A stretch of 64,000 nt of DNA from a bacterium (lineage in GTDB: Bacteria; Bdellovibrionota; UBA1018). The stretch is taken from assembly GCA_019751945.1 (NCBI GenBank), contig JAIEMT010000007.1:2608-66607 (forward strand), given 5' to 3'. The first letter of the stretch is position 1, and each line of letters starts with the position of its first letter. The position numbers and the translations under genes were made by a program. Positions 6,012 through 41,209 of this stretch are shown here, piece by piece. The notes below the pieces were generated by a model. It searched no databases and had not been told where the DNA came from. It saw nothing but the letters and a program-made list of their open reading frames with translations.

Positions 6012-6012
6012 A

Positions 6013-8609: not shown

Positions 8610-8612
8610 TTT

Positions 8613-9632
8613 TTAAGACGAAGCAATTGCAGCAACAAACTGGTCTACATCGGTCGGTGTCGTATTCCACGAAGTCATCCAACGAGCGATCGGCCCCTTC
8701 GGATCAACAACGTAGAAATAAAAGTCTTTTTGAAGACGTTCCACTAAAGGAGGGGAGAGTCGAACAAAAATCGCGTTTGCCTGTACTGGGTACAAAACGG
8801 GAATCGCCTCTAAATTTGAAACCCCTTTGTAGAGGCGCTGAGCCATTTCATTCGCGTGAAGAGCGTTAGTCTTCCAAATTTCTTTTTCTAAATAAGCTTC
8901 AAACTGGCAAGAAAGGTAACGCATCTTCGAGGCTAACTGCATGGCCTGCTTTCGAACAAAATGAAAGCGCTCTGCAAACTGGGGCTGATTGAAGAATACG
9001 ACGGCCTCTCCTAGAAGCATTCCATTCTTCGTCCCTCCAAAAGACAGCACATCCACACCCAAGTCGGCACTGAGAGACTTCAAAGATCCGTTCAGACTCA
9101 CGACTGCATTTGAAAAGCGAGCCCCGTCCACGTGCAAAAACATTTTATGAGCGTGCGCAAAATCTGCGAGCGCTTTTACCTCCTGAGAGGAATAAACTGT
9201 TCCTAATTCGGTGGTTTGAGAAATGCTAATCACCCTGGGCTGAACCCGATGGGGATCTCCTTTATAAGTCAGGAACGGCTCAATCTGCTCGGGACAAAGC
9301 TTTCCATCTTTTGTTGGAAGAGCGAGTATCTTTACACCGGCGAATTTTTCGAGAGCCCCGCATTCGTCGACTTGAAGATGGGCGGTGTCAGGACAGATCA
9401 CCGCTTCATGCGGAAGCATGCAACTCGAAATGGCCGTGACGTTCGCACCGGTTCCATTAAAAACAGGAAAAGCCTGTGCTGCAGATCCAAAGTGCTTCTG
9501 AAACAGTTTTTCAATCGATACGGTTTTAGAATCTGCACCGTACGCAGAAGCCCAGGCTTGATTCTCCATTTCGAGAGACTTCAAAAGAAGAGGATGCGCC
9601 GGGACGGTGTTGTCGCTTGCAAAGGTTTTCAC
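8613..9632 (-). CDS. ltaE: Low-specificity L-threonine aldolase (beta-eliminating lyase family, PLP)
   Basis: 339 aa. The N-terminus MKTFASDNTVPAHPLLLKSLEMENQAW... and overall layout match the threonine aldolase family. Confidence 0.7.
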   Translation of the reverse strand: MKTFASDNTVPAHPLLLKSLEMENQAWASAYGADSKTVSIEKLFQKHFGSAAQAFPVFNGTGANVTAISSCMLPHEAVICPDTAHLQVDECGALEKFAGVKILALPTKDGKLCPEQIEPFLTYKGDPHRVQPRVISISQTTELGTVYSSQEVKALADFAHAHKMFLHVDGARFSNAVVSLNGSLKSLSADLGVDVLSFGGTKNGMLLGEAVVFFNQPQFAERFHFVRKQAMQLASKMRYLSCQFEAYLEKEIWKTNALHANEMAQRLYKGVSNLEAIPVLYPVQANAIFVRLSPPLVERLQKDFYFYVVDPKGPIARWMTSWNTTPTDVDQFVAAIASS

Positions 9633-9670
9633 AGCGCTGTCTTACCCGAGCCGGGAATAAGAAAAAAGAC

Positions 9671-10561
9671 CTAATCAATGAGGATTTGATTGGTAACAGC
9701 CGGAGGTGGCTCACCCCAAAGAGTCTTCAGATCTGAAAGAGGCACGATCTCTAACGGTTCTTTTGCATTGTCGAGACTGGCCAGAAGCGTGGCTTCTTGG
9801 GTGGCCTTCTTGAGTTCTGCCACTTGAGTGGCGTGCGATTCGTGAGCCGCCTTGAGTTCACGAGAATACGCCTCAACGACATTTGCAGATTCGGCCTGTG
9901 CACTTTCAAGCTGAGCGAGCTTCTTTTCATACTCCGCCTTGGTTTTTTCTTTTTCGCGAGAAAACTCCCACTCCAAGCGTTCGCGCATGGAGACTTCTGC
10001 TTTCTTCAACTCCTGGTCAAAAACTCGCTTACTTGCGGATAAGGCCTGCTGTTCCTTCATCAGCTCTGCAAACTTTGCTTCCGCACTATGCAGGCGCACC
10101 AAGGTGTTTTGCAACTCGAGTTGATAAGACTTGGCATGACGCTCAACCTGCTCACGCGCCGTTTTCTCCACAGAAAGATCGGAGACTGCTTTCTTGAGTT
10201 TCAACTCCAAGGCAGAAATTTTTTCGCGATCGATTTCGTATTCTTTTATGGCAAGCTTGGCTTCTTTTTCTTTTTGAAGCACGTCTGTCCAAGCGCCTCG
10301 ATATTGGGTGAGCTCTTTTCTCAGGGTATTGATTTCGGTTTTAGCCTGGCCTTCAAAAGTTCGATACTCATTCAACGCCATCTTCATTCTGGTTAGAATG
10401 GTTTCGTATTCTTTCAGCTTCTGATCTTTTTCTTGAACGAGACGATCGTAGACTTTCTGACTTTGCTCGTAGTCCTGCTTGAGCTGTTGCACTTCTTTAT
10501 CTTTGTTCGAAAGTGTTTCTTCTAACTGGCGAATGGCCAGAAGAAAGGCGTCAGAGTTCAT
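9671..10561 (-). CDS. Coiled-coil protein (hypothetical)
   Basis: Heptad-rich and K/E/Q-rich over about 290 aa. The track ORF extends to 10729, but the first 56 residues are R/P/S-rich and overlap the MarR gene. Start taken at the internal Met (MNSDAFLLAIRQLEE). Confidence 0.4.
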   Translation of the reverse strand: MNSDAFLLAIRQLEETLSNKDKEVQQLKQDYEQSQKVYDRLVQEKDQKLKEYETILTRMKMALNEYRTFEGQAKTEINTLRKELTQYRGAWTDVLQKEKEAKLAIKEYEIDREKISALELKLKKAVSDLSVEKTAREQVERHAKSYQLELQNTLVRLHSAEAKFAELMKEQQALSASKRVFDQELKKAEVSMRERLEWEFSREKEKTKAEYEKKLAQLESAQAESANVVEAYSRELKAAHESHATQVAELKKATQEATLLASLDNAKEPLEIVPLSDLKTLWGEPPPAVTNQILID

Positions 10562-10592
10562 CTTTCTATTTTCAACTCGACGAGCGGGGGAG

Positions 10593-11069
10593 TCAAACAG
10601 GGGTACTGGGCAAGATCTTCCCGGCTTCAGAGCTCGCAAAGGCGGCTCGGAAGCGCGCGATGCGCTGAACGGTGCCACGGACCTCCTGGGCTCCAAACTT
10701 CTGCTCGAAGTAATTTTCAACGGAGTCAATTGTTTGAATGAGCTTCACAGCCAGGCGGCGCCCCTCCGGCCTCAGGATGAGCTGATAGCTCCGGGCGTCT
10801 TTTTCATTGAGCTTTCGTCGGAGCAGGCGCCTCTTCTCAAGGTGGGAAACGCCATGGCTAATATTGCCGCGAGTTGTCCCTAGAATATCAGCGAGCTGGG
10901 ACGGACTTACGGCGTCGTTCTTCTCGAAAAACAAGGAGATCAAAATCAAGGCTTGCATGAGGTTGCAGTTCTCTTGCTTGAGCTTGGAATTCAGCCCTCT
11001 TAGGATCGTGTCATAGCTAGATCCGATGGCCAGAAGCAGGCTGTTTTGAACGAATTTTTCGATTTTCAT
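10593..11069 (-). CDS. MarR family transcriptional regulator
   Basis: 158 aa with a winged-helix MarR signature (LSPSQLADILGTTRGNISHGVSHLEKRRLLRRKLNEKDARSYQLILRPEG). Divergent from bioB. Confidence 0.7.
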   Translation of the reverse strand: MKIEKFVQNSLLLAIGSSYDTILRGLNSKLKQENCNLMQALILISLFFEKNDAVSPSQLADILGTTRGNISHGVSHLEKRRLLRRKLNEKDARSYQLILRPEGRRLAVKLIQTIDSVENYFEQKFGAQEVRGTVQRIARFRAAFASSEAGKILPSTPV

Positions 11070-11179
11070 GATGGACTAATCCGATTTCTAAATAGTTTAA
11101 GTCGTCAACTATCTAGCACTAAATCTATATCGCTTCCAATCTTATTTAATTCCAATAGAAAGCGTTTCCTGGCAAATGA

Positions 11180-12121
11180 TTGTCCATGGAAAACAATCTA
11201 TTAGCCCAAGCCGAAGCTCTTTATAACCAACCCTTTATGGACCTGCTCTATCAGGCTCATCAAGTGCATCGACAACACCACGACCCCGCAGAAATTCAAC
11301 GCTGCACTTTGCTCTCCATCAAAACCGGGGGCTGCCCTGAAGATTGTTCGTACTGCCCGCAATCGGCGCACTACGATACTGGCTTGGAACGCGAAAATTT
11401 AATGCCACTCGAGAAGGTTCGAGAAGCCGCCAAGAACGCCTCAGCCAATGGCGCTCAACGATTTTGCATGGGCGCCGCGTGGAGAAATGTGAAGGACGGA
11501 CCCGAATTCGACCGCGTTTTAGAAATGGTCAAAATCGTGAAAGCGGAAAACATGGAAGCCTGCGTGACGCTCGGAATGCTGACGGAAAGCCAAGCTCAGC
11601 GTCTCAAAGAAGCGGGTCTCGATGCTTACAATCACAACTTAGATTCCAGCCGCGAATTTTATGAAAAAATTATTCACACGAGGAACTATGACGACCGACT
11701 CAATACACTGAAAGCTTGCCGAAGTGCTGGCCTCACCGTTTGTAGCGGCGGAATCATTGGCATGGGGGAATCCGTGAAAGACCGTTGCGGACTCCTGGCT
11801 GAACTTGCTGCTTTGGATCCCCAACCTGAGTCAGTTCCGATCAACTTACTGATTCCCGTTGCTGGCACACCTCTCGAAAAGTCGAAGGAAGTCGATCCGA
11901 TTGATTTGGTGAAAACCATCGCTGTTGCCAGAATTCTCATGCCGAAATCGCGCGTTCGCCTTTCGGCCGGCCGAATCTCGCTCACCAAAGAAGCCCAGGT
12001 TTTGGCGTTCTTTGCTGGAGCTAACTCTGTTTTCTTAGGAGAGACCCTACTCACACGCCCGAATCCCACCCCGGATCAAGATCATCAGCTGTTGTCGAGC
12101 TTGAGTGGGTCTGTGCACTGA
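11180..12121 (+). CDS. bioB: Biotin synthase (radical SAM)
   Basis: 313 aa. CxxxCxxC radical-SAM motif ([13 protein letters not shown]). First gene of the bio operon. Confidence 0.9.
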
Positions 12122-13222
12122 GTGGATTTTAACCCTCACTTCGAAAAAATTATTCGCGAGTTAGAAGCTGCTTCTCAGCACAGGAGCTTGAAGCCCCGAA
12201 GTGGTGTTGATTTCTCTTCCAATGATTATTTAGGATTTAGCGAAGATAAGATTCTTCGTCAGCGCATTCTTGCTCGTTTAGAAAATCTTCCCACCGGGTC
12301 AACCGGATCGCGCCTCCTCCGAGGAGAAAACGAAGTTTACTCACAAGCTGAAGCCACGCTGGCTCGTTTCTCAGCACGAGAAGCTGCGATTATTTTTCCC
12401 TCGGGATATCAGGCTAACTTGGGATTATTGAGCGGGCTTGTGGGCCCTAACGATGTCGTGTTTTCAGATCAATTCAATCACGCCTCGATCATCGACGGCA
12501 TTCGACTCAGTCGTGCGCAAAAGAAAGTTTACCCTCATTGTGATCTGGGACAGTTAGAAGAACTCCTTCGCACGACTTCCAGCAACGGCCTAAAACTGAT
12601 CGTGACCGAATCGATTTTCAGCATGGACGGCGATCGCGCTCCACTCAGTGACTTGGCAGATCTAGCCGAGAAATATGAAGCAGGTTTGGTGGTGGATGAA
12701 GCGCATGCCACTGGGCTGTACGGATCGGGCTTGGTTCAAGAACTTCTCCTAACCGATCGCGTGTTGGCCACACAACATACGGGCGGAAAGGCCCTCGGCG
12801 TCGGTGGAGCCTGGATTGCCTGCAGCGCGGCCCTAAAAGATTACCTCGTAAACTTTTCAAGGCCCCTCATTTTTTCAACGGCACCCATTCCTGCTCTAGC
12901 GGTATCACTCGAAGAATCCGTCCTACACTTGTCCAGCGCAGGACCCGAGCAAATTGAAGCGCTTTGGCGTCACTGTAGTTTATTGAGCGCAAGCTTGAAC
13001 CTTCGTCAAATACGCGGTCCTATTTTTCCGTACATCTTGGGTGATAATGCATCTGCACTTCGCATGAGCCAAAAACTCATTGCCGCAGGTCTCGATGTGC
13101 GCGCCATTCGACCCCCCACAGTTCCGGAAGGAACTGCCCGCCTTCGAATGACGATTCACGCGGATCAAGATCCGAAGGACATTCAGAAACTCACGCGGAT
13201 TCTGCAGGAGTCGATGTCATGA
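12122..13222 (+). CDS. bioF: 8-amino-7-oxononanoate synthase
   Basis: 366 aa alpha-oxoamine synthase. PLP-lysine region GTLGKALGVGGAW and VVDEAHATGLYG. GTG start directly after the bioB stop. Operon context supports bioF rather than kbl or spt. Confidence 0.8.
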   Translation: MDFNPHFEKIIRELEAASQHRSLKPRSGVDFSSNDYLGFSEDKILRQRILARLENLPTGSTGSRLLRGENEVYSQAEATLARFSAREAAIIFPSGYQANLGLLSGLVGPNDVVFSDQFNHASIIDGIRLSRAQKKVYPHCDLGQLEELLRTTSSNGLKLIVTESIFSMDGDRAPLSDLADLAEKYEAGLVVDEAHATGLYGSGLVQELLLTDRVLATQHTGGKALGVGGAWIACSAALKDYLVNFSRPLIFSTAPIPALAVSLEESVLHLSSAGPEQIEALWRHCSLLSASLNLRQIRGPIFPYILGDNASALRMSQKLIAAGLDVRAIRPPTVPEGTARLRMTIHADQDPKDIQKLTRILQESMS

Positions 13223-13824
13223 GTACTCCCGGAATCTTCGTCACTGGAACCGATACGGGCGTGGGAAAAACAGTCGTATCGGGGTTACTCATCTCTGCCA
13301 TCCGGGATTGGAAGGGTCAGGTAGGATACTTTAAACCCGTCCAAACTGGATCTGATTCTGACACCCAAACCATTGCTCAACTCACGGGGCTCAACCCTCC
13401 ATCTCTGGCAGTTCCTGTTTACGAATTTCCGGAACCCATTGCTCCTCACCGCGCGGCGTCGCTTCATGGCGCTCACATTGAGATTGAAAAAATTCAGAGC
13501 GCCTGGGAAAGCCTTCCCAAAAATTTTTGGATCGTCGAAGGGGCAGGGGGGATTTGCACACCTCTTTCCAATACAACTCAGATTCTCGACATTCCCAAAG
13601 CGCTCGAGTTACCAATCGTAATTGTGGCCGCTTCGCGCCTAGGAACCATTAATCACACTCTACTGACCTATCAGCAGGCTCGTGCAAAAGGTTTGCGGGT
13701 TTTAGGAATTATTGTCACTGGAGAAGAAGATCCCGAATTAGTGAGCTACCTAAAAAAGGGGTTGGATCTCCCCGCTATTTCTAAGTCAGAAATCCCGACT
13801 TGGCTGAAAGGGGTGTTGCAGTGA
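13219..13824 (+). CDS. bioD: Dethiobiotin synthetase
   Basis: 201 aa. P-loop GTDTGVGKT. ATGA overlap with bioF. Confidence 0.85.
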   Translation: MSTPGIFVTGTDTGVGKTVVSGLLISAIRDWKGQVGYFKPVQTGSDSDTQTIAQLTGLNPPSLAVPVYEFPEPIAPHRAASLHGAHIEIEKIQSAWESLPKNFWIVEGAGGICTPLSNTTQILDIPKALELPIVIVAASRLGTINHTLLTYQQARAKGLRVLGIIVTGEEDPELVSYLKKGLDLPAISKSEIPTWLKGVLQ

Positions 13825-15089
13825 ACACCCTTTCAAATCGAGACGCTCAGGTGGTTTGGCATCCCTATTCTCAACCAGGCAGAGACAAAATGGTGCTGCC
13901 AGTGTTGTCAGCTCAGGGCGCTTACCTACATCTAGAAGATGGCAGCAAAGTCTTGGATGCCATCTCGTCATGGTGGGTAAATATTCACGGACACTCGCAC
14001 CCGAAAATTGCAGCGGCAATTGCAGAACAGGCGGCGAAACTCGAACACGTGATTTTTTCGGGTTTTACTCATGAACCCGCTGTACGCCTAGCAGAAATAT
14101 TGCTCGAGGCTACCCAGTCACGGGGCGCTCCGTATCGAAAGGTTTTCTACTCTGACAACGGTTCCACAGCGGTCGAAGTCGCTCTGAAAATGGCCTACCA
14201 ATATTTTCAGAATCGAAAAGTTCAGGGCCGAGAACGCTTCATTGCTCTGCGCGGCTCCTATCACGGCGACACTTTGGGCGCGATGGCGGTGGGAGATCCG
14301 GAAGGATTTCACTCACGATTCAAACGCCTCCTACCGGCAGTAGATTTTATCGAACCAGGGGACATCGTCGCCTTAGAATCCCTGCTTCAAAAAAACCCAG
14401 GCCAGTATGCCGCATTTATTTTTGAGCCGTTGATTCAAGGCGCCGAAGGAATGAAAACTTATAGCCCTGTATTTCTAAAGTCTGCGATGGCACTTTGCCG
14501 GGATAACGAAGTTCTCACCATCGGAGATGAAGTCTTTACAGGCTTCTATCGCACCGGCACCCGCTTTGCCTTTGAACAACTCGGCATGGCTCCAGATCTT
14601 CTCTGCATTTCCAAAGGAATTACGGGAGGGTTTCTTCCCCTTTCAGCAACTTTAGCGACGGGGCAAGTTTTTGAGGCCTTCGTTTCATCCGAGATGAGAG
14701 ACGCTTTTTTACACGGACATTCCTATACCGCAAATCCAATTGCCTGCGCGGCAGCGCTAGCATCCTGGGAAATATTGAACTCTGAGGAATGCCAGAAAAC
14801 TATTCGAACGATTTGCGAAACAACGAAGGAATGTGTGTCCCAATTTGAGGGACATCCGAAAGTGAAATCCGTGCGCACGGTGGGAACTATTGGTGCCGTC
14901 GAAGTCCATCAAAAAGATACTTACTACTCCGTTGCGAAGGAAAAGATCATTGCGGCCGCGGTACGCGAGGGGGTTCTACTGAGACCTCTCGGAAATGTTC
15001 TCTATTCCGTACCCCCTTACTGCGTGACTCGCCAGGAAGTTCAGAAAATTTACAAAACACTAGGAGATCTCATCCATGAATACTTTTGA
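13800..15089 (+). CDS. bioA: Adenosylmethionine-8-amino-7-oxononanoate aminotransferase
   Basis: 429 aa class-III aminotransferase (WHPYSQ..., SYHGDTLGAMAVG, CISKGITGGF with PLP-Lys). An alternative GTG start at 13821 would give a 4-nt GTGA overlap with bioD. Confidence 0.85.
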   Translation: MAERGVAVNTLSNRDAQVVWHPYSQPGRDKMVLPVLSAQGAYLHLEDGSKVLDAISSWWVNIHGHSHPKIAAAIAEQAAKLEHVIFSGFTHEPAVRLAEILLEATQSRGAPYRKVFYSDNGSTAVEVALKMAYQYFQNRKVQGRERFIALRGSYHGDTLGAMAVGDPEGFHSRFKRLLPAVDFIEPGDIVALESLLQKNPGQYAAFIFEPLIQGAEGMKTYSPVFLKSAMALCRDNEVLTIGDEVFTGFYRTGTRFAFEQLGMAPDLLCISKGITGGFLPLSATLATGQVFEAFVSSEMRDAFLHGHSYTANPIACAAALASWEILNSEECQKTIRTICETTKECVSQFEGHPKVKSVRTVGTIGAVEVHQKDTYYSVAKEKIIAAAVREGVLLRPLGNVLYSVPPYCVTRQEVQKIYKTLGDLIHEYF

Positions 15090-28919: not shown

Positions 28920-30206
28920 CTACAAGAGTTCCATCGGCTGGACTTTCCTTAAAAAAATAAAACCCGAAAAATGATTCGCTAACACCGCTTTCATTTCCGG
29001 ATCATCATCGGAAGGATCGCCCCAAATTGTTTGTAAGGATGTCATTAACGGGTGGTCCTTATCTAAAAAAACATCGTCCTGAAAAGTTTCAAAGAGGTAG
29101 CTTTCCAAAAAACTGGCCGGTGCCGTCTTTACGATCGGTGGCTGAAGACTACTCAGTCTGAATCCAAGTTCGTAGCTCGAAATCGCGATGGGATGGTACT
29201 TCTTCCCGAAAAACTCCCGCAAGCGAGTGCCCATGGTACGTGTTCCACGGTAATCTTTTGAGACGAATTCGAGTTGATTGCTATTAAAGAGAATATGGGC
29301 GTTGTGCGCCCAGATCACAGCGGGTTTGCCCTTGAGGAAGTGAAGAGAAAAATTAATAATTTTCTTTGCCATTCCTAAATCCCGCGCCGAATTACTGCGA
29401 GGTTGGTCGCTATTTCGATAATACATCTGACCAAGCCAGGCCTGATAACCATCTATCGCAGCCTGAATCTGAAACCGATTTTCACCCCTCGCGTTCAATT
29501 TTAAATCCAGCTTAGCTTTCAGATGGTCGATCGCCAAATTGCAGGAAGCAAAATCCTGGGAATTGATTAGTTTCTCATGATTGAAGACACGACGCTCAGT
29601 CTTACTGGCATCTTCTTCAGTGGCGTCTATTACCAAACAATGCTTCACAAACTGCTGCCATCTCAAGCCATTGGACAAAGCAAATTTTTTCAGGATCTTT
29701 CCATCTGCTGCAGGCTGACGCGTATCGTAGCCATAAAATAGAATGGGGTCTTCGCGATGGCTTTGGTTGAAATCCCTAATCCAAGTGAACATTTTCGCAA
29801 TCTCTCTTGCCTGCCAAACTTTATAGAACCTTTTAAGTGGCTCTATGACATCCGACGATTCCCCAGACAAAAACCGTTTCATGGGTTCGGTAAAAGCATC
29901 CGGTTGTTCAAAGAGCAGAGCTCTGACTCCCTTTTTCTCAACGAGGTATTTTATGATTTCGAATTTGACCTCATAGAATCCTCCCGAACCGTGGGAGCTC
30001 TCCCCTAGTCCAATAAGGAAACTTTCCTCTGCGTCAGAATTTAAGAACTCCCAGGATTCGAGCCCACGCACGTGAGCATAGTCCCCTTTAATATCTCTGG
30101 AAACAACACGTGATGAATCATTGCGAATGCCGCCATGCTGGCATCCGAAAACACCCAGAAACAAAGGCAATGACATCAACCATCTCTTCAAGGTCGACCT
30201 TTTCAA
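28920..30206 (-). CDS. Erythromycin esterase / ChaN-Tiki superfamily protein
   Basis: 428 aa with a signal peptide. GLGESSHGSGGFYEVKFEIIKYLVEKKGVRALLFEQPD resembles the conserved GEATHG..E N-terminal region of erythromycin-esterase-type hydrolases. Confidence 0.45.
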   Translation of the reverse strand: MKRSTLKRWLMSLPLFLGVFGCQHGGIRNDSSRVVSRDIKGDYAHVRGLESWEFLNSDAEESFLIGLGESSHGSGGFYEVKFEIIKYLVEKKGVRALLFEQPDAFTEPMKRFLSGESSDVIEPLKRFYKVWQAREIAKMFTWIRDFNQSHREDPILFYGYDTRQPAADGKILKKFALSNGLRWQQFVKHCLVIDATEEDASKTERRVFNHEKLINSQDFASCNLAIDHLKAKLDLKLNARGENRFQIQAAIDGYQAWLGQMYYRNSDQPRSNSARDLGMAKKIINFSLHFLKGKPAVIWAHNAHILFNSNQLEFVSKDYRGTRTMGTRLREFFGKKYHPIAISSYELGFRLSSLQPPIVKTAPASFLESYLFETFQDDVFLDKDHPLMTSLQTIWGDPSDDDPEMKAVLANHFSGFIFLRKVQPMELL

Positions 30207-30227: not shown

Positions 30228-33200
30228 CTAAGGCACTGTAACAAGGTACAGATGCTCAGGGATTGCTGTACTTGAAGGAAGCACTTCCAGCAAGTCCAAC
30301 ATCTGCCAGTTGGAATTCACGCGAATGCGGATCGTATGAGGACCGGAGGTGAGTGAAATATTGGGGCTATAAAGCTTACCCCAGTAGACCCCACCGCCTT
30401 TGGAATCTGGACCCTCGATGCTATCGAGGTCTGCGCTTAATTCCACCGCCTTGTTGTCGACGAAAACTTGGTAGTTGTTGCGCGCGATTAAATAGGAATA
30501 CGGATCTCCTGAAGTCGCTGAGCTGGAATAACCCGTTCGAACACGCACGGCAAAGTGATAACTCCCGGCCGATGAAACGTTCACGGGGATGGAAATCTCA
30601 TCTCCGTTATCTACCATCATCAGGCCTGCTCCACCGCTAGCCAAATCAAATGCCGCGCTTCTAATCGTACCGTTGGTACCAACGTCGCTCACCTTCGTAT
30701 AAGAAGAAGTCTCTAATTCTATCACCTGTGCGCTCCCATTCGCACCGGGAGGATTCATATCCGGTGTCGGCACGGTAGCAAGCACGGTATTGCTTGGAAA
30801 CGGAACGTCGGCTGTGAGTACTTCAAGAACATCGAGCATCTGCCAACTAGAATTCATACGAATGCGAACTGTGTGATTGCCCGCGCTCAAGGATAGATTC
30901 GGCGTATACAAATTACCCCAGAAAACACCGCCGCCTTTCGAATCTGGTCCGGCTATTCCATCTAAATCTGCAATCAATTGAACGGCAACGCCATCGATGA
31001 AGACCTGATAATTATTCAATGTAGTGAGATAGGAATTGGGAACGGACTTGCTCGTGTTGGAATACCCCGTTCGTACTCGAAGAGCAAAGTGATAAGCCCC
31101 GGCACGCGCAAGATTCACCTGAATTGAAAATTCATCGCCTGGGTCGAGCGCTTGCAAACCCGCTCCACCACTCGCCAAATCAAATGCTGCCATCCGAATG
31201 TTGCCGTTACTACCCACGTCGCGAACATTCATTAAGGTCGCTGACTCGAGCTCCACTCGCTGAACCAAACCCAACTCGGGTTCTAAGTCGGTTACAGATG
31301 CGGCTGGATCTCTCCAGAGCACAACCGCACTTTGAGGTTCGACAAAAAATGGGAAGTAGGTCGGAAAACCTTCGAGGTCTCTCCAGCCCGAACAGAGGGT
31401 GCCCGACAACGAACAGGGAATCGATACTGCTTGGGCAGTACTGGGGTTCACCGCGACCTGAAGGAGCTGATCAAAATTTGTAGCTGTCACGCTCACCGCT
31501 TTTAAATCAAAACCACCAAAAATCACCTGAGAGGAAACCGGAATGGTGAAATCGATTCTCGCGTTGGCAGAGGTTGCACTCGCACGAAAATAGATGTCAT
31601 GAGTAGTCCAAAGTCCGGCCTCGGTTCTAGCTTGAACGGAGAGCTGCTGATTGAGCGCATCGATGTTTCCATAGGGAGTGACATTTTCACGAACGCTCAC
31701 TCCGATCAAAGCAGGTTTCGAAGTAGCCGATCGTAGTTGCACTCGGGCTCGATAATAAGTGTCTCTTACCGTGGAAAATGGTTTTGATATCGCAAGGCCA
31801 ATTTCGCTGGCTGCAGTGGAGTAGAGTAAACAAATGCCGGAACTACTGACGATCGGACAAGGAACCTGAGCCTTTGTTGCCGTCACGTTAGCGGACCAAA
31901 CCGAAAAGCTCGAAAGCTCAGACGCCGTACCCGCGTTCAAGGTAGAACTTTCCGAAACAGTCTGAAAACCCGGAGTGACGGAACTGAACGGTTTCATGGG
32001 AGCACGATCCACTCCTAATCCTGCTAACTCCTCAAAAGTAAAATCGCGAGAACCCGCATTCGACGTAAACCGTAGGTAAGTGAAAGTGGTGGGATTCAAA
32101 AAAGTGTTTCCAGAGCCACGTATCGCTGCAGGAATACGATCTAGACCAGTGCCCTGATTGGAATACACCCATATTGGAATTGCAGAATACTTCGAGCCCA
32201 AGACGTTCCCGACAAAAAGATTGTTTACCGAAGCTGGAACAGTTTGGCCACTCGGGTTGAGAATAGGAACAAACTGCGCGGTTGGTCGGTCAAATCTTTT
32301 TCGAACACTATCCTCCGCAGATCTCACACCGTAGACCTTGTAATTAAGAAAAGAATTGTTCTGAATGACGTTGTCATATGCATCGTGAAGCATCAGTGCA
32401 ATGTCGACGTTCTCAACAACATTGCCGGTAACGGTCATTCCGTGAGAATAGTCATCAAGATAAAGACCTGCTACCGCATACGCAACCCGCCCCTTTCCTG
32501 AAAGGTTCGCTGTCGCATTTCTGAGAATATTATTTCGAACAGTCACTCGGGGTTGACGATCGGAGATGTGGATGCCCCCGCAGTCGTCCGCAAGTAAACA
32601 AAAGTTCTCAATAACGTTACCTTCAATGACAGCACCTGCTAATCCAAAAATTCCTACGTAAGCAATGTTCTTAAAACGATTGTTTCGAATCACCGCTGGG
32701 CTGGGATAATAAGAATTTAAAAGTACCGCTGCGGCCGAAAACCGAGGCCCCAATGGCGTGCCGATATTTTGAAAATCATTATTTTCGAGAAGAATTCCTG
32801 CGTCTGCTCGAGCAATATAATGTTGCCGAATAACGTCCGACCCGATGTTATTCACCATGGAGTTTTGAATTTTCCAGGGCTGTGTATTTCCGTCGAATGA
32901 AAATGCAAGACGATAACTATTCTTCACCTGAATCTGAAAGATACTCAGATTCGCGGCACCGTTTGCCTGAATGGCATTCAACCCAGAATTGATGATCTGT
33001 AAATTTTGTAGAGTGACATCGGGGCTGTTGGCCAAAGTGAGAATGTTCTTGTCTTCCGCTACCTCAACGACAACGTCATTCGGATTCAATCCGTTTGGCA
33101 ACGATACATAGAGAGTACTGGTCGCAGCGTCATAAACCCAACCCGGTTGGTTCTGAGCCATCATCCAGACTTTGTTTTCGAGATAGTAGCCCCAGTTTTT

Positions 33201-33893
33201 CATCGGAGGATACGCAAAGTAGCAGTTGGGGTAGCACTCCGTAGGTTGCCTAGGTGCAGAGTTCATCGCGAATATTCCGGAAGTGCGATTGAAACTGGAA
33301 ACGACAACAGAGTTGTACCAATAGTCGACAATTCTTGCGGTGAGAGTCGCTCCTACCAAGTCCTTACCACCCAAAAAAGTCAGGTCGCCAGCGGCTGCTT
33401 GAAGAGTGAGATTGCTAGCAGCAGCCGTCGTGGCTGGAGCATTTTCTCCGATGGTTAAAAATCCCGACGCGGGATAGCGCGCTTTCTTTAAGAAGTTGTT
33501 CTGATAAAAAACCTGTCCTACCGGATTAGAAACGACTTTCTTGTAAATTGTACCGGAATGAACACTCCAGCCCGTAACCCGAGCACTCCCACTCAAAGAA
33601 GTGGAGGAAGCTCCTGCACCGTTAATAACAAGTGGAGCCTTGAGACCAGAAATTTGAAAAGTGCCCGCACAAGTTCCAGAGGCGACTTCCAATCTCCCGC
33701 CGACAGTGATGACAGCGTTAATGCCCGCCTGAAGACTTGAAAAGGGGCGGGCTTGAGAGCCGTCGCCTGTCGAGGCGCTTTTGCAATCGACGTAGACCGT
33801 TGCTGCCCAAGAGGCGCTCGCCGAAAGAAGGCCATAAGATAAGGCTAAACACCCAGTACGTAGTAAATTCCCCATCGATCGATCCCCACCCAT
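30228..33893 (-). CDS. Large secreted right-handed beta-helix (pectate-lyase-fold) protein with two tandem C-terminal carbohydrate-binding-like domains
   Basis: 1221 aa with a signal peptide. Central region has parallel beta-helix repeat signatures (NNIGSDVIRQHYIARADAGILLENNDFQNIG; GNVIENFCLLADDCGGIHIS; GNVVENVDIALMLHDAYDNVIQNNSF). The C-terminal ~330 aa are two ~160-aa repeats, about 55-60% identical. Confidence 0.6.
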   Translation of the reverse strand: MGGDRSMGNLLRTGCLALSYGLLSASASWAATVYVDCKSASTGDGSQARPFSSLQAGINAVITVGGRLEVASGTCAGTFQISGLKAPLVINGAGASSTSLSGSARVTGWSVHSGTIYKKVVSNPVGQVFYQNNFLKKARYPASGFLTIGENAPATTAAASNLTLQAAAGDLTFLGGKDLVGATLTARIVDYWYNSVVVSSFNRTSGIFAMNSAPRQPTECYPNCYFAYPPMKNWGYYLENKVWMMAQNQPGWVYDAATSTLYVSLPNGLNPNDVVVEVAEDKNILTLANSPDVTLQNLQIINSGLNAIQANGAANLSIFQIQVKNSYRLAFSFDGNTQPWKIQNSMVNNIGSDVIRQHYIARADAGILLENNDFQNIGTPLGPRFSAAAVLLNSYYPSPAVIRNNRFKNIAYVGIFGLAGAVIEGNVIENFCLLADDCGGIHISDRQPRVTVRNNILRNATANLSGKGRVAYAVAGLYLDDYSHGMTVTGNVVENVDIALMLHDAYDNVIQNNSFLNYKVYGVRSAEDSVRKRFDRPTAQFVPILNPSGQTVPASVNNLFVGNVLGSKYSAIPIWVYSNQGTGLDRIPAAIRGSGNTFLNPTTFTYLRFTSNAGSRDFTFEELAGLGVDRAPMKPFSSVTPGFQTVSESSTLNAGTASELSSFSVWSANVTATKAQVPCPIVSSSGICLLYSTAASEIGLAISKPFSTVRDTYYRARVQLRSATSKPALIGVSVRENVTPYGNIDALNQQLSVQARTEAGLWTTHDIYFRASATSANARIDFTIPVSSQVIFGGFDLKAVSVTATNFDQLLQVAVNPSTAQAVSIPCSLSGTLCSGWRDLEGFPTYFPFFVEPQSAVVLWRDPAASVTDLEPELGLVQRVELESATLMNVRDVGSNGNIRMAAFDLASGGAGLQALDPGDEFSIQVNLARAGAYHFALRVRTGYSNTSKSVPNSYLTTLNNYQVFIDGVAVQLIADLDGIAGPDSKGGGVFWGNLYTPNLSLSAGNHTVRIRMNSSWQMLDVLEVLTADVPFPSNTVLATVPTPDMNPPGANGSAQVIELETSSYTKVSDVGTNGTIRSAAFDLASGGAGLMMVDNGDEISIPVNVSSAGSYHFAVRVRTGYSSSATSGDPYSYLIARNNYQVFVDNKAVELSADLDSIEGPDSKGGGVYWGKLYSPNISLTSGPHTIRIRVNSNWQMLDLLEVLPSSTAIPEHLYLVTVP
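30250..31330. repeat. Tandem duplication (~540-bp unit x2) inside the 1221-aa gene, encoding the two C-terminal binding domains
   Basis: DNA similarity is visible between about 30300-30660 and 30838-31200 (for example GCTCCACCGCTAGCCAAATCAAATGCCGCG versus GCTCCACCACTCGCCAAATCAAATGCTGCC). The protein repeats are VGSNGNIRMAAFDLASGGAGLQALDPGDEFSIQVN and VGTNGTIRSAAFDLASGGAGLMMVDNGDEISIPVN. Confidence 0.55.
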
Positions 33894-35682: not shown

Positions 35683-36741
35683 TCAATCAAAGAGAGTGGG
35701 CGGCTCAGAGCCGGGAACGGAAGTTTTTTTTGTCTCTTCCCAGGGCAATCCCAGATGTTCATAGGCCAAACGGGTCGCCATTCGCCCCCGACTCGTGCGC
35801 TGAAGGAAGCCCTCTTGAATCAGGTAGGGCTCGTAGACATCCTCCAGGGTATCTCTCTCTTCACCGATGGCAGAAGCAAGGGTTTCAATCCCCACCGGAC
35901 CGCCATCGAATTTCTCAGAGATCGTTCGAAGATACTTTCGATCCATCGAATCTAACCCCCGGTGATCGACCTCAAAGAGCTGGAGGGCTTTTTGAGCCAA
36001 AGCACGATCCAGCTTCTTAGCGCCTTCTTCTGCACGAACCTGCACGAAATCCCGCACCCGCTTCAGCAAACGGTTGGCAATTCGGGGCGTTCCGCGCGAG
36101 CGGCGGGCAATTTCATTGGCGCCCGACGCATCGATTTCAATATCGAGAATCTGGGCGGAACGAAGCACGATCTTTTCTAACTCTTCGTGAGGGTAAAATT
36201 CTAATCGCAGCTGCACTCCAAAGCGGTCTCGCAAGGGATTGGTGAGCAAGCCCGTCCGAGTGGTAGCCCCCACCAAAGTAAAGCGAGGTAAATCGATGCG
36301 CAAAGTCCGCGCTGCTGGGCCTTGTCCAATAATGATGTCGAGTTTGAAATCTTCCATCGCTCCGTAAAGCACTTCTTCGATGGTTTTCTGCAGACGGTGA
36401 ATCTCGTCGATGAAAAGCACGTCGCCCGGCTGAAGCTGACTCAAGACTGCGGCCAGGTCGCCCTTCTTTTCAACGTTCGGGCCCGTCACCATGTGAATCT
36501 GAGAACCCATCTCGTGAGCAACAATCTGTGCCAGCGTGGTTTTCCCCAAGCCCGGAGGTCCCGCCAGCAAGACGTGATCGAGCGAATCGCCCCGTTTCTT
36601 CGCCGCCTGAATAAAAAGCGAAAGATTTTCTTTCACATGCTTTTGGCCGACGTATTCCGCCAAAGTGCCGGGACGTAGATTGGGCGCTTGATCCCCGGCC
36701 GCCGATTCTGGCGCAACGATTCTGGATTCGGTGTCGCTCAT
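35683..36741 (-). CDS. ruvB: Holliday junction branch-migration helicase RuvB
   Basis: 352 aa. Walker [12 protein letters not shown], Walker B DEIHRL, RuvB C-terminal winged helix. Confidence 0.9.
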
Positions 36742-37391
36742 GAAGCAGAACCCCCGATACTTCGAAGAGCGCTGCGAATCAGCTCTTCCACCTGCGTCGG
36801 CGGAGTGGATTGAGCCATCAACGAATTCAAAGTCGATGTGACTTCCATTTCTCGATAACCTAAACCCATCAGCGCCTCTCGCGCTTCACGCAAAATTCCA
36901 CCCGCACCCGAAACAGCTCCGGATACTTTGGCGTGGGTTTCAGAGGGCTTCTTCGAAAGAAGCCCAGAATATTTTCCAGCCTGAACTTGCTTCCGGATGG
37001 GATCAATCATTTCTAAAATAATTCGATCCGCCGTTTTCTTGCCGATGCCCTGAACGTCGTGCAACGATTCTTTGTCGCCATCCACAATGATTTGAAGCAA
37101 ACGACCGGGCTCAGTATGTGAAAGAATTCCCAGCGCGCTCTTAGGACCAATTCCATTCACGTTCAAAAGAGCCAGGAATAAATCTTTTTCATCCTTGGTG
37201 CGAAAGCCGAAAAGATCCAGCGCATCTTCGCGCACGTGAGTATGAATGTAGAGTTCGAGAGAATCGCCCGCCTGAAGGCTGATGCCCTCGCGAATGGACA
37301 TCGTAACGAGGTAACCCACTCCATTCGCGGTGGAGAGAAGGAGTTTGTTGTCTTCGATTTCTAGAATTTTCCCCTGAAGGTAACCGATCAT
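36738..37391 (-). CDS. ruvA: Holliday junction DNA helicase RuvA
   Basis: Start taken at the internal [15 protein letters not shown] (218 aa, canonical RuvA N-terminus). The track ORF extends to 37532 through an R/S-rich stretch overlapping ruvC. ATGA overlaps with ruvC upstream and ruvB downstream. Confidence 0.8.
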
Positions 37392-37999
37392 CTCTTCTTT
37401 ATTACTGCCGCAACTCCGAGGGATTCGGCAAGCGACATTCGCTTTTTCTTTCCTGAGCTCAATTGAGTTGCGAGCGACGGTTTTTGGGACGCTGCTGCAA
37501 CTGGTTGCGACACCAACCGATAGGCGTGGCATATTGCGAGCGCTAACGCATCAGACGCGTCAGAAGTGACAAAGTTTTTCTGCCCAAGCAAAATTCCCAC
37601 CATTCGAGCGATCTGATCTTTATCGGCCTGACCGTACCCGCTCACTGCAGCCTTTGCTTCTGTGGGGCTGTACTCGGCGATTTCTAATCCGTGAATTTTT
37701 CCAGTGAGGATTGCAGCGCCGCGCGCCTGGCCCAGTTTCAGCGCAGAAAGTGCATTCTTCGCGAAGAAAACTTTCTCAACCACCATGACATGCGGACGCA
37801 CCTGAGTGATCACTTCGCTCAAGCCCTGATGGATAAGAAGTAACCGATCATCTAGCGAAACGGTGGCCTTCCCGCTCGTGCTCGCGATCTTCAAAGTACC
37901 ATGGCAGACGTGTTGGAGTTGATTCCCCACCAGGTCGACGCAGCCGTAACCTGTGAGACGAGACCCCGGATCTATTCCTAAGATTCGGAACACTTTCAT
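37388..37999 (-). CDS. ruvC: Crossover junction endodeoxyribonuclease RuvC
   Basis: 203 aa. MKVFRILGIDPGSRLTGYG is the typical RuvC N-terminus with the catalytic Asp. Confidence 0.85.
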   Translation of the reverse strand: MKVFRILGIDPGSRLTGYGCVDLVGNQLQHVCHGTLKIASTSGKATVSLDDRLLLIHQGLSEVITQVRPHVMVVEKVFFAKNALSALKLGQARGAAILTGKIHGLEIAEYSPTEAKAAVSGYGQADKDQIARMVGILLGQKNFVTSDASDALALAICHAYRLVSQPVAAASQKPSLATQLSSGKKKRMSLAESLGVAAVIKKR

Positions 38000-38029: not shown

Positions 38030-39178
38030 TTAGGAAAGGGCTTTATCGTAGATTCGATAAACCTTCGCCAACTCGCCCTTCATGTATTCGACGCCGCGAA
38101 CCATGGGCTTGTTGTCTTCCAAGATCCAAGACGCTTCGCCGGTCGGATAACCGTTGCCAGGACCGCGCGTTAAATATTCTGTATAAAGGAGCGGGCCAAT
38201 ACCCACTTCGCGATACGCCTTCTTAATTCCCAAAGTGAGAATACGACAACGATTCAGCGTCTTCTTCTTTCCCGGACCCTTGGTGTTCCAAAGTAACTTC
38301 AACAACCCAAAGGGCAGAAGCTTTCCATCTGGAACCTTCTTCAACGCTTGATTGATGTCGGGCAGAGCCAGAGCAAAGCCCGCGGGCTCGCCTCGTACTT
38401 CACACATCAAAAGAAGATTCGGATCCACCACAGCCTTCATGTCTTTGGCCATGTGACGAAACTCTTCAGGGTTCATCGGGACGAAGCCCCAATTCTTTTC
38501 CCAGGCGTCGTTGTAAATTTCTAAAATGGTTTCGACTTCCTGGTCGAATTTTTTCATGTCGACCGTACGGAAAGTCACCTTACCGCCGGCCTTCAAACGC
38601 TCGGAATGACGAATCAGTTTTTCTGAAAACTTAGAATCGCCGTGAATGTAGTAAGCGTTCAAATCTTTCGCCTTCGCAAAACCCCAGCCCTCTAAAAGGG
38701 TAGCGTAGTAAGGCGGATTGTAAGTCATCATCACCGACGGAGTGTCATCGAAGCCTTGGATCAGCAAACCGCACTCGTGGTTCGTGCTCGGATTCATCGG
38801 TCCACGCAGCATATTCATGCCCTTGGACTTGGCCCAATTCGCCACTTCACCCAACATCAAGTCGGTGAGCTCTTGGTTCTCAATCGCTTCGTAGAACCCA
38901 AAGAAGGCCGTTTTCTCTTCGTGATACTTGTTGTGGTTGTCATCGATCACGCCGACAACGCGGCCCACGCACTTACCATTTTGATAAGCCACGAGCGGGT
39001 ACATCCAGGCGTGCTTGAAAAAGGGGTTCTTATTCACGTCAAGCGTGTCTTTGACCGCGATCTTCAGCGGCGGAACCCAGTACGGACTGTCTTTGTAGAT
39101 CATCCAAGGAAGGTCAATGAAGTCCTTCCAGTCTGACTTGCTCTCAACGCGCTTCAGCTGAAACTGCTGCGTACTCAT
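38030..39178 (-). CDS. GNAT-superfamily acyltransferase-like protein (candidate bacterial ceramide synthase-type N-acyltransferase)
   Basis: 382 aa. Two GNAT-like halves (...GRVVGVIDDNHNKYHEEKTAFFGFYEAIEN...; ...FRTVDMKKFDQEVETILEIYNDAWEKNWGFVPM...GEASWILEDN). Overlaps the downstream spt-like gene by 35 nt, implying co-translation. Confidence 0.4.
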   Translation of the reverse strand: MSTQQFQLKRVESKSDWKDFIDLPWMIYKDSPYWVPPLKIAVKDTLDVNKNPFFKHAWMYPLVAYQNGKCVGRVVGVIDDNHNKYHEEKTAFFGFYEAIENQELTDLMLGEVANWAKSKGMNMLRGPMNPSTNHECGLLIQGFDDTPSVMMTYNPPYYATLLEGWGFAKAKDLNAYYIHGDSKFSEKLIRHSERLKAGGKVTFRTVDMKKFDQEVETILEIYNDAWEKNWGFVPMNPEEFRHMAKDMKAVVDPNLLLMCEVRGEPAGFALALPDINQALKKVPDGKLLPFGLLKLLWNTKGPGKKKTLNRCRILTLGIKKAYREVGIGPLLYTEYLTRGPGNGYPTGEASWILEDNKPMVRGVEYMKGELAKVYRIYDKALS

Positions 39179-40466
39179 TCTGTACTACCTTTTCCTTCTT
39201 GCTATCTCTGGGGAGACTCACGGTCTTCACCCCAAAATGAACGCGCGCCAACTCTGCCAATTCATGCTGACGCTCGGTTCCGATAATTCCGAACTCTTTG
39301 CCCAATTTCTCGAGAACTTCAAGGGCATAATTGAGGTCAGCCTCTTCGTGGGTGGCCATATAGCTAGTGCGAATGAGAGCACAGCCTTCCGGAACGGCAG
39401 GTCTTGCTACCGGGGTAGCAAATACACCGTGTTCGTAGAGTTTCGAAACAAAGCCATACGCTTGGTAATCATCACCGATCAGAAGCGGAATGATGGGAGT
39501 GCGACTGTTGAGCGTGTTGTAACCCATCGACTCCAAACCTTCGCGCATCTTCTGAGCGTTGGAGCGCAGGTTCTGTAGATGTTCCGGCTCTTCCTGAACG
39601 ATCTTCAAACACTCGAGCACAGCGCCCACCGCAGCTGGCGGCATGGCGGCACTGAACATGAACGGACGCGCCTTGTGGCGAATGAAATCGACGACTTCCT
39701 TCTCACCAGCGATGTAACCACCAATGGAAGCAAAGGACTTCGAAAAAGTACCCATGACGAGATCTGCAGCGCCCATCCTATTGAAATGGGCTTCAGTTCC
39801 CTCACCGCGAGGTCCGAGAACACCCAAAGCATGGGCATCGTCCACGTAGACGCGGCAATTATATTGTTTAGCGAGCTGGGCCAGCTCTGGAAGATTCAAA
39901 ATATCGCCGGACATGGAGAATACGCCGTCTGCAATAATCAAGGCGCCGTCGTAGTCCTGGCGGGTTTGCTTGAGCACGCGCTCGAGGTCTGCCATATCGT
40001 TGTGGCGATATTTCACAGTATCGCCGATGGCAACGCGAGTGCCTTCAATAATGGATGCGTGGTTTTCACGATCGCAGTAAATCACGTCGCCACGACCGAC
40101 GAGGCACGAGATCGAACCCTGGTTCGCCAAGAAACCCGTCGAAAAAACGAGGGCAGATTCCTTACCCACAAATTTTGCCAATTCAGCCTCGAGCTCTTCA
40201 TGAAGAGCGAGGTTTCCGTTCAAAAAGCGAGAGCCCGTGCAACCGGTGCCAAAAATATCAATGGCGCGCTTGGAAGCTTCCTGGACCCGAGGATGGTGGG
40301 TCAAACCTAAATAGTTATTGGAACCAATCATGACCCGTCTTTTTCCATGGCTCACCACTGAGGAGCCTACGGTCGATTGAATGGGGCGAAAGAAGGGATA
40401 GAGCCCCGCCGCCTTGATTTTCTTCGCTTCATCATACGCACTACATTTCGCAAACAAATCCATCAT
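39144..40466 (-). CDS. spt: Serine palmitoyltransferase-like alpha-oxoamine synthase (PLP)
   Basis: 440 aa. Close family resemblance to bacterial SPT: GTGCTGSRFLNGNLALHEELEAELAKFVG, ALVFSTGFLANQGSISCLVGRGDVIYCDRENHASIIEG, active-site Lys in GTFSKSFASIGGY, and PVARPAVPEGCALIRTSY. Distinct from the operon-embedded bioF paralog at 12122. Kbl cannot be fully excluded from sequence alone. Confidence 0.55.
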   Translation of the reverse strand: MMDLFAKCSAYDEAKKIKAAGLYPFFRPIQSTVGSSVVSHGKRRVMIGSNNYLGLTHHPRVQEASKRAIDIFGTGCTGSRFLNGNLALHEELEAELAKFVGKESALVFSTGFLANQGSISCLVGRGDVIYCDRENHASIIEGTRVAIGDTVKYRHNDMADLERVLKQTRQDYDGALIIADGVFSMSGDILNLPELAQLAKQYNCRVYVDDAHALGVLGPRGEGTEAHFNRMGAADLVMGTFSKSFASIGGYIAGEKEVVDFIRHKARPFMFSAAMPPAAVGAVLECLKIVQEEPEHLQNLRSNAQKMREGLESMGYNTLNSRTPIIPLLIGDDYQAYGFVSKLYEHGVFATPVARPAVPEGCALIRTSYMATHEEADLNYALEVLEKLGKEFGIIGTERQHELAELARVHFGVKTVSLPRDSKKEKVVQNEYAAVSAEAR

Positions 40467-40673
40467 ATGGTTCTTACCTACCTTGATTCGGGATTATCAT
40501 TAGCCGTAACCCCTTGTCAATTATTGGTATTTTATTACGCAGCAGAAAGTACTCAAGTTCCTATAAAAATTTCCGATAAGAGAAGGGATAGGGAAGTAGT
40601 GTTCGCACATCCTCGGGAAGCCTTGACGCTGGGCGCAGCGTCTCGTTTCTCTCGGCGGAAAGAAGTTCGTATG

Positions 40674-41165
40674 CTCAGCCGTGTTGGATCCGCACTTAAA
40701 AAGTTCGTTTCCCCCATATCGTCGGTCACACCTGCGTCCGCCAAAACAGGATCCCATACCGAAACAGATCAGCAGCCCACCCGCGAAAAGGCCTTGGAAC
40801 TCAGCGGCTTCATTAAATTCGAAAGCCAGTCCGACGAACAAAAGCAGCAACAAAAGAAGAAGCAGAAACAACCGAAAGAGACCGAACTCGCAAAGGACCT
40901 GGAGAGCGCCGGATCAAACGTTATCCCCATTTCCCCCTCGGTCTCGCTCGAACAAACGAGCTCGACTCCAAAGCCTCCAGTGCCCCAGGCCTCGAACCAA
41001 CCTGGAATGACTTCCACCTTCTTAGCCTTCTTCAATATGTTTCAGAGACGGAAGGAATACTTCATTCGTTGGCTGGGGGTGCGCAATTACCAAGACTCCA
41101 CGCGCCGAACCAAGAAGCTTTCAAAGCACTCCAAGGGCACCATGCTCGATCGAAAAGCCGAATAG
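40674..41165 (+). CDS. Low-complexity (K/Q/S/P-rich) hypothetical protein
   Basis: Start placed at MLSRVGSALKK. The track ORF begins at 40377, which would overlap the spt start and leave no divergent promoter space. Contains a QKQQQKKKQKQPKE tract. Confidence 0.3.
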   Translation, partial: LSRVGSALKKFVSPISSVTPASAKTGSHTETDQQPTREKALELSGFIKFESQSDEQKQQQKKKQKQPKETELAKDLESAGSNVIPISPSVSLEQTSSTPKPPVPQASNQPGMTSTFLAFFNMFQRRKEYFIRWLGVRNYQDSTRRTKKLSKHSKGTMLDRKAE

Positions 41166-41209
41166 GGGATGCCCCAAAAACAGGCACCCCCTTCAGCAAA
41201 TTTCAGCAA

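Follow-up and report, generated by a model that had tools for sequence, protein, structure and literature searches.

We analysed a stretch of 64,000 nucleotides (hereafter the window) of contig JAIEMT010000007.1 in assembly GCA_019751945.1 and found on its minus strand two overlapping genes. They very probably form an spt–bcerS unit of the bacterial ceramide pathway, which is already known, and the genome that carries them is of the Bdellovibrionota (Bdellovibrionia/Oligoflexia-like). The upstream gene, spt (39144..40466, minus strand), encodes a 440-aa alpha-oxoamine synthase (AOS) that resembles serine palmitoyltransferase (SPT), as judged from the list of open reading frames (ORFs), Pfam, NCBIfam, the PDB and a tree. 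The downstream gene, bcerS (38030..39178, minus strand), is predicted from Pfam, tblastn and an AlphaFold model to encode a 382-aa tandem-GNAT N-acyltransferase of the YghO/CC_1154 family. In the ORF list, spt ends 35 nt inside bcerS (overlap 39144..39178, minus strand). An earlier note on this DNA, made without database searches (the sequence-only reading), had described the two genes and their 35-nt overlap as a putative ceramide synthesis pair; its coordinates are exact in the ORF list, and both the assignments to SPT and to bacterial ceramide synthase (bCerS) and the linkage of the two genes across phyla agree with its proposal. The gene structure, the family assignments and the cross-phylum linkage were computed here, while the substrates, the order of steps, the reductase, co-transcription and translational coupling are what we infer. 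As the pathway is already known, the result amounts to a re-annotation that is correct but ordinary; no new system is involved.

In the proposed pathway, the 440-aa pyridoxal 5'-phosphate (PLP) enzyme would make 3-ketosphinganine by condensing L-serine and a long-chain acyl thioester; by analogy with the Bacteroidetes/delta-proteobacterial SPT subgroup, this thioester would most likely be acyl-CoA. The 382-aa tandem-GNAT enzyme would then N-acylate 3-ketosphinganine to 3-oxo-dihydroceramide, and a keto-reductase encoded elsewhere, either a CerR-type enzyme of the NAD epimerase family or a KDSR-type short-chain dehydrogenase, would convert the latter to dihydroceramide. Sphingophosphonolipids and a characterised SPT are on record for Bacteriovorax stolpii, in line with the remark of the sequence-only reading that Bdellovibrio-like organisms contain sphingolipids.

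The 440-aa protein is an SPT-like alpha-oxoamine synthase

Pfam assigned the 440-aa protein to the general aminotransferase class I/II fold only (Aminotran_1_2, E 6e-58). The top NCBIfam model was NF047600, CFB-type serine palmitoyltransferase (491.9 bits, cutoff 640), followed by the BioF/Kbl-family model TIGR01825 (412.8 bits), Kbl (390 bits) and BioF (387 bits). The top solved structure was the SPT of S. multivorum (SmSPT, 389 bits), ahead of Thermus BioF/Kbl (323 bits), E. coli Kbl (267 bits), the SPT of Sphingomonas paucimobilis (256 bits), cysteate-C-fatty acyltransferase (244 bits), BioF (∼212 bits) and ALAS (∼207 bits). The alignment with SmSPT spans aa 6–391 of the 440-aa protein with one 1-residue gap, and the two are 46% identical over the trimmed alignment columns. 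All active-site residues that have been named for the serine complex of the S. multivorum enzyme (PMC10196870) are kept in this alignment, i.e. Asn52, Gly80-Ser81, Phe83, His138, Ser185, Asp210, Ala212, His213, Thr241, Ser243, Lys244 and Met271 in SmSPT numbering. The four motifs listed in the sequence-only reading (GSRFLNG, VFSTGFLANQG, DRENHASIIEG and GTFSKS) all occur in the translation; the lysine of GTFSKS corresponds to Lys244 (the PLP lysine), the histidine of NHAS to His138, and DDAH supplies Asp210 and His213. The description of the protein as SPT-like is thus borne out by the best scores, which went to an SPT model and an SPT structure, and by the conserved active site. These data support the prediction that the 440-aa enzyme is an SPT of the Bacteroidetes/delta-proteobacterial subgroup that condenses L-serine with long-chain acyl-CoA.

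Like SmSPT (PDB 3A2B, 8GUH), the window enzyme is by sequence a soluble homodimer-type AOS. It differs from SmSPT in an added C-terminal extension that overlaps the next gene: the protein consists of a core of ∼395 aa and a poorly conserved tail of ∼45 aa, and its homologues are mostly 413–430 aa long and do not keep these last ∼45 residues.

The phylogeny was a neighbour-joining tree of 26 sequences (393 columns, 300 bootstraps), read as unrooted splits with few outgroup sequences. The 440-aa protein fell into a Bdellovibrionota clade (99–100% bootstrap) that was placed among SmSPT and other GNAT-linked AOSs. E. coli Kbl, Thermus BioF/Kbl and the product of the window's own bioF gene lay outside the SPT side of the tree. 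The protein is therefore outside both the Kbl and the BioF clades (61% for the split), so that this check, set by the sequence-only reading, came out in its favour. The same reading had called the gene a second paralog besides the bioF of the biotin operon, and the two products are indeed 32% identical. The bioB-bioF-bioD-bioA operon (11180..15089, plus strand) is complete, with abutting or overlapping genes, and its bioF lies at 12122..13222 (plus strand).

The 382-aa protein belongs to the bCerS family

Pfam recognised a single GNAT domain in the 382-aa protein, and it lies C-terminally (Acetyltransf_1, E 7e-7, aa 216–360). No NCBIfam family matched the protein, and no pathway-specific NCBIfam model matched CerR-like proteins either; NCBIfam appears to model only Spt of the ceramide pathway, so that its null result for the 382-aa protein is uninformative. 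A PDB sequence search gave noise only. An AlphaFold model computed with 22 homologues (pLDDT 79.7, pTM 0.80) consists of two GNAT-like halves, and its top structural matches are tandem GNATs (E 1e-12): the clavulanate-pathway tandem GNAT (2WPW/2WPX), 5KF1, which is a glucosamine N-acetyltransferase, MshD and Eis.

A tblastn search of plasmid and replicon records with annotation matched the protein to E. coli YghO over 98% of its length (35% identity, E 2e-56). Similar full-length matches were obtained in Klebsiella, Pseudomonas, Sphingomonas, Roseomonas, Rubrobacter and Streptomyces, with identities of 32% to the Sphingomonas GNAT, 40% to that of Rubrobacter and 35% to that of Streptomyces. 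In the reverse direction, the YghO, Sphingomonas, Rubrobacter and Streptomyces proteins matched, within the window, the 382-aa gene only. An alignment of 15 diverse family members contains 26 invariant residues; the motifs YN(D)AWxxNWGFVP and ExSW(I/V)LE(D)N are found family-wide and are common to YghO. The RxxGxG acyl-CoA motif reads REVGIG (aa 323–328) in the window protein, and proteobacterial bCerS proteins differ from it by a 3-residue insertion in this region.

The family was described under the name aca, with CC_1154, yghO (ECD_02850), Swit_3908 and DRN02_007910 among its members, as an acyl-CoA N-acyltransferase needed for dihydroceramide (PMC9386255). CC_1154 is the same gene as CCNA_01212, the bacterial ceramide synthase of Caulobacter. 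Deletion of the B. fragilis homologue, BF9343_4218, leads to accumulation of 3-ketosphinganine, and it is for these two genes only, CCNA_01212 and BF9343_4218, that the ceramide synthase role was tested genetically. The window GNAT shares with the bCerS family (CCNA_01212/CC_1154, YghO ECD_02850, BF9343_4218) the ∼380-aa tandem-GNAT architecture, the family motifs and the linkage to spt. Its relatives are YghO and GNATs from clusters with spt, acyl carrier protein (ACP) and epimerase genes, and not the aminoglycoside or peptidoglycan acetyltransferases against which the sequence-only reading had advised a check. Membership of the 382-aa protein in the bCerS family is thus supported, and we predict that it N-acylates 3-ketosphinganine or sphinganine.

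Could the pair instead use the same chemistry on another amino acid, so that the GNAT acts on an aminolipid base that is not derived from serine, e.g. a capnine/sulfonolipid-type base made from cysteate, a 1-deoxy base or a glycine-derived one? AOSs of the SPT branch are hard to tell apart by sequence, the 244 bits of cysteate-C-fatty acyltransferase mark it as clearly related, SPTs accept alanine and glycine at low efficiency (PMC10196870), and the score of the 440-aa protein lies under the NF047600 equivalog cutoff. We nevertheless consider such a base improbable, as SmSPT scored 389 bits against the 244 of the cysteate enzyme and every residue that contacts serine in the SmSPT complex is kept; moreover, the linked GNAT belongs to a family required for ceramide synthesis and the Bdellovibrionota are known as sphingolipid producers.

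The two genes are linked across phyla

A scan for relatives of the GNAT, with one genome per species, yielded 231 loci, of which 80 were kept. An AOS gene adjoined the GNAT gene in 75 of these 80 loci, and in 67 it lay directly upstream on the same strand. The median distance from the AOS stop codon to the conserved residue 8 of the GNAT was 32 nt (within 71 nt in 65 of the 67), i.e. tight spacing or overlap of the two genes is the rule in related loci. The AOS is directly upstream in several classes of Bdellovibrionota, in Ignavibacteriales, an FCB-group bacterium and Zixibacteria, and also in a Lysobacteraceae metagenome-assembled genome (MAG), in Rhodothermales and in a Rickettsiales MAG. 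In two Spirochaetaceae loci the order is GNAT, CerR-like reductase and then the SPT-like gene, and in an Acidobacteriota locus the SPT-like gene is adjacent on the opposite strand, with an epimerase-family homologue near the pair. Of the five loci in which no SPT-like gene adjoins the GNAT gene, two lie at contig edges and three are from gammaproteobacterial MAGs.

In several groups the pair is followed by a reductase gene. A CerR-like gene of the NAD epimerase/dehydratase family (320–360 aa), the Pfam family to which CerR itself belongs, lies directly after the GNAT gene in Halobacteriovoraceae and in the Rickettsiales MAG, and Rubrobacter and Streptomyces have AOS-GNAT-reductase operons. Compared with these spt-bcerS-cerR operons (Rubrobacter radiotolerans plasmid 1, Streptomyces sp. 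NBC_01001, Halobacteriovoraceae and the Rickettsiales MAG), the window has the first two genes in the same order and with the same tight spacing, and the proteins are 35–48% (GNAT) and 40–54% (AOS) identical; the third gene is an NAD-dependent epimerase/reductase in the operons and ruvC in the window. Four Halobacteriovoraceae loci (L057, L064, L066 and L070, ∼5900..12300) contain a PilZ-domain gene, spt, bcerS and the cerR-like gene, and then divergent PAP2-phosphatase-like and fatty-acid-hydroxylase genes, which looks like a fuller sphingolipid cluster than that of the window.

The yghO gene of E. coli and Klebsiella adjoins a cluster of genes for a fatty acyl-AMP ligase, an NAD-dependent epimerase/dehydratase, an ACP and a class I/II PLP enzyme (named aasR, epi, acpR and spt in the E. 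coli BL21 cluster; PMC9386255), and the E. coli cluster holds extra lptF/lptG copies. Sphingomonas parapaucimobilis has reductase, ACP and AOS genes, then lptFG, a desaturase gene and the GNAT gene. In Caulobacter, E. coli and Sphingomonas the bCerS gene is several genes away from spt or divergent from it and the clusters carry acpR, aasR, cerR and lptFG copies, whereas in the window bcerS overlaps spt and the pair is accompanied by none of these.

Two of the loci drew attention for their labels. A YghO-family gene on the Roseomonas mucosa plasmid pTT14-1 (L085, 6953..8110) is annotated as 'dATP pyrophosphohydrolase'; its neighbours are LptF/G-family permease, sterol-desaturase-family, CDP-alcohol phosphatidyltransferase and nucleotidyltransferase genes, and the name is probably a mis-annotation within a sphingolipid head-group cluster. 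Another locus (L060) is titled 'MAG: Bacteriovorax stolpii', and its contig has a G+C content of 60%, against ∼42% in the type strain; the label looks doubtful and we did not equate the locus with the characterised B. stolpii SPT.

The linkage bears on whether the 440-aa protein might be of the Kbl/BioF type, i.e. a glycine C-acetyltransferase or a second 8-amino-7-oxononanoate synthase, with the GNAT as an unrelated small-molecule acetyltransferase. This is how public databases would have it, with the labels '8-amino-7-oxononanoate synthase' or '2-amino-3-ketobutyrate CoA ligase' for homologues of the one protein and 'RimI-like' for those of the other, and Kbl/BioF models still reach 387–413 bits. 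We find it barely credible: the SPT model and structure give higher scores, the true bioF is already present in the bioBFDA operon, no tdh gene is adjacent to the 440-aa gene, the AOS–GNAT adjacency in 67 of the 80 loci from several phyla is not given by chance, and the GNAT is a full-length YghO/bCerS homologue. The lower scores, the separate bioF, the lack of tdh and the conserved GNAT linkage largely refute a Kbl/BioF identity.

Pathway partners and the reductase step

We searched the 64-kb window by tblastn (E≤10) with proteins of the E. coli, Sphingomonas, Rubrobacter, Streptomyces, Halobacteriovorax, Spirochaetaceae and Rickettsiales clusters, including seven CerR-type proteins, and found no ACP, acyl-AMP ligase or CerR-like reductase. 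The statement of the sequence-only reading that no ACP, acyl-ACP synthetase or CerR-like reductase is adjacent to the pair therefore extends to the whole window. In addition, Pfam revealed no additional lipid genes among 28 further ORFs of the window.

The pairing of an ACP with an acyl-ACP synthetase is a feature of the alpha/beta/gamma-proteobacterial SPT subgroup, while the Bacteroidetes and delta-proteobacterial SPTs, including that of Bacteriovorax stolpii, form a separate subgroup for which the pair is not described (PMC9386255). The absence of both genes is thus expected, because the predicted SPT belongs to the latter subgroup, and it is a point of likeness to S. multivorum SPT and its subgroup. 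Consequently, of the suggestion that the module is 'incomplete or split', the part that concerns the ACP and the acyl-ACP synthetase falls away, while the part that concerns the keto-reductase stands, as the window holds no CerR-like gene for this step.

A profile search with the CerR type of Bacteriovoracia gave matches of the Halobacteriovoraceae/Bacteriovoracaceae type only and did not reach the clade of the window; the contigs known to bear the pair of that clade gave no match. The only reductase-type gene seen near the window lies ∼3 kb past its right end and encodes a generic 249-aa classical short-chain dehydrogenase (adh_short/KR; L090, 13586..14335 of contig k127_228753), which nothing connects with sphingolipid synthesis.

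Observations that weigh against a ceramide role

Several observations count against reading the pair as spt–bcerS. The 440-aa protein did not reach the equivalog cutoff of NF047600 (491.9 versus 640 bits), so that the NCBI rule gives it no automatic SPT name, although this is by name a CFB-group model whose cutoff Bdellovibrionota SPTs may or may not reach. The split between Kbl/BioF and SPT received a bootstrap of only 61%, in a small tree with few outgroups. The link from the 382-aa protein to CCNA_01212 and BF9343_4218 runs via E. coli YghO and the orthology statement in PMC9386255, and the ceramide synthase role of the Bdellovibrionota GNATs is a prediction from sequence. Three MAGs of Gammaproteobacteria/Arenicellales (L039–L041; GNAT at ∼8001..9131, 54–56% identity) differ from nearly all other loci in that the 8 kb around the GNAT gene contain no AOS; spt may be located in another part of these genomes, or this GNAT may have a different role. 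Finally, there is no reductase gene in the window, and the window-clade loci L001–L054 have none up to 8 kb from the pair.

The last point could mean that the CerR step was lost, and that the pathway stops at 3-oxo-ceramide or the pair is a remnant without mature sphingolipids. The failure of the Bacteriovoracia CerR profile to match any contig known to bear the pair of this clade would fit such a loss. Yet both proteins are 66–80% identical within the clade and have many invariant residues, which argues for selection on function. Moreover, the three pathway genes of Bacteroidota are also unlinked, and some Bacteroides use a different, KDSR-type short-chain reductase. We regard loss of the step as very improbable and retain the spt–bcerS assignment, with the reductase gene predicted to lie elsewhere in the genome. 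In the window, spt is directly followed by bcerS, whereas Bacteroidota have scattered pathway genes.

Putative expression signals and gene neighbourhood

A Shine-Dalgarno-like stretch, AAGGAAAAGG (39188..39197, minus strand), was seen on inspection of the DNA inside the 3' end of spt, with 9 nt between its end and the bcerS ATG at 39178. The 35-nt overlap may point to translational coupling of spt and bcerS, which the sequence-only reading had called co-translated. A putative sigma-70-like promoter (40493..40520, minus strand; TTGACA, 16 nt, GATAAT), recognised by 11 of 12 consensus matches only, ends 27 nt before the start codon of spt, and transcription of spt–bcerS probably starts from this near-consensus site. 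It would proceed from 40520..40493 through spt–bcerS and run on into ruvCAB; co-transcription of ruvC-ruvA-ruvB with the pair is probable because no terminator-like site is present on the minus strand between the genes.

The ruvC-ruvA-ruvB genes (35683..37999, minus strand) lie directly downstream of bcerS after a 30-nt gap and are context rather than part of the lipid pathway. ruvC occupies 37388..37999 (minus strand), and the mechanically called ruvA ORF (36738..37532, minus strand, 264 aa) overlaps it by 145 nt. The start of this long ORF is probably wrong: the RuvA-like sequence begins at Met48 (MIGYLQGK), and with a start there the stop codon of ruvC and the start codon of ruvA would overlap as ATGA (37388..37391). 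ruvA and ruvB overlap by 4 nt, and lpxC follows ruvB. The synteny of ruvCAB with the pair is kept in ∼40 Bdellovibrionota loci, and the conserved neighbours in the window clade are housekeeping genes (ruvC, ruvA, ruvB, lpxC, murA, prmC and prfA). Upstream of spt are genes for a 200-aa protein that matched no Pfam family, a PA14-like lipoprotein, a response regulator and a HIT protein, as well as murA, prmC, prfA and rho.

The only ORF in the 743-nt gap upstream of spt (40467..41209) is one of low complexity (40377..41165, plus strand) without a Pfam hit. No Rfam family matched in the gap, and nothing beyond the promoter-like site at 40493..40520 explains its length. Elsewhere in the window, a gene at 30228..33893 (minus strand) encodes a protein of 1221 aa that contains CBM35-like and right-handed beta-helix regions and may be a secreted polysaccharide-active protein; an erythromycin-esterase-family gene (28920..30206) adjoins it.

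Significance

The value of the finding lies mostly in annotation. Thousands of database homologues are labelled '8-amino-7-oxononanoate synthase' or 'RimI-like/GNAT N-acetyltransferase', where the evidence says an spt–bcerS pair. The only new question that the analysis raises is which enzyme reduces the 3-keto group in the window clade. A more far-reaching account, which we hold to be rather unlikely, is that spt–bcerS of the freshwater/soil Bdellovibrionia/Oligoflexia clade to which the window belongs has lost its linked CerR and become fixed in the array murA ... spt-bcerS-ruvC-ruvA-ruvB-lpxC, with probable read-through into ruvCAB; a non-homologous reductase for ceramide or 3-oxo-ceramides as membrane lipids of these predators, and co-regulation of sphingolipid genes with DNA repair and lipid A genes, might then follow.

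For the family as a whole, an SPT-like AOS gene followed immediately by a YghO-like tandem-GNAT gene offers a simple rule that flags likely ceramide producers. The rule held in the examined loci of Bdellovibrionota, Ignavibacteriales, Zixibacteria, Rhodothermales, Spirochaetaceae (there in the order GNAT-reductase-AOS), Rickettsiales and Actinomycetota.

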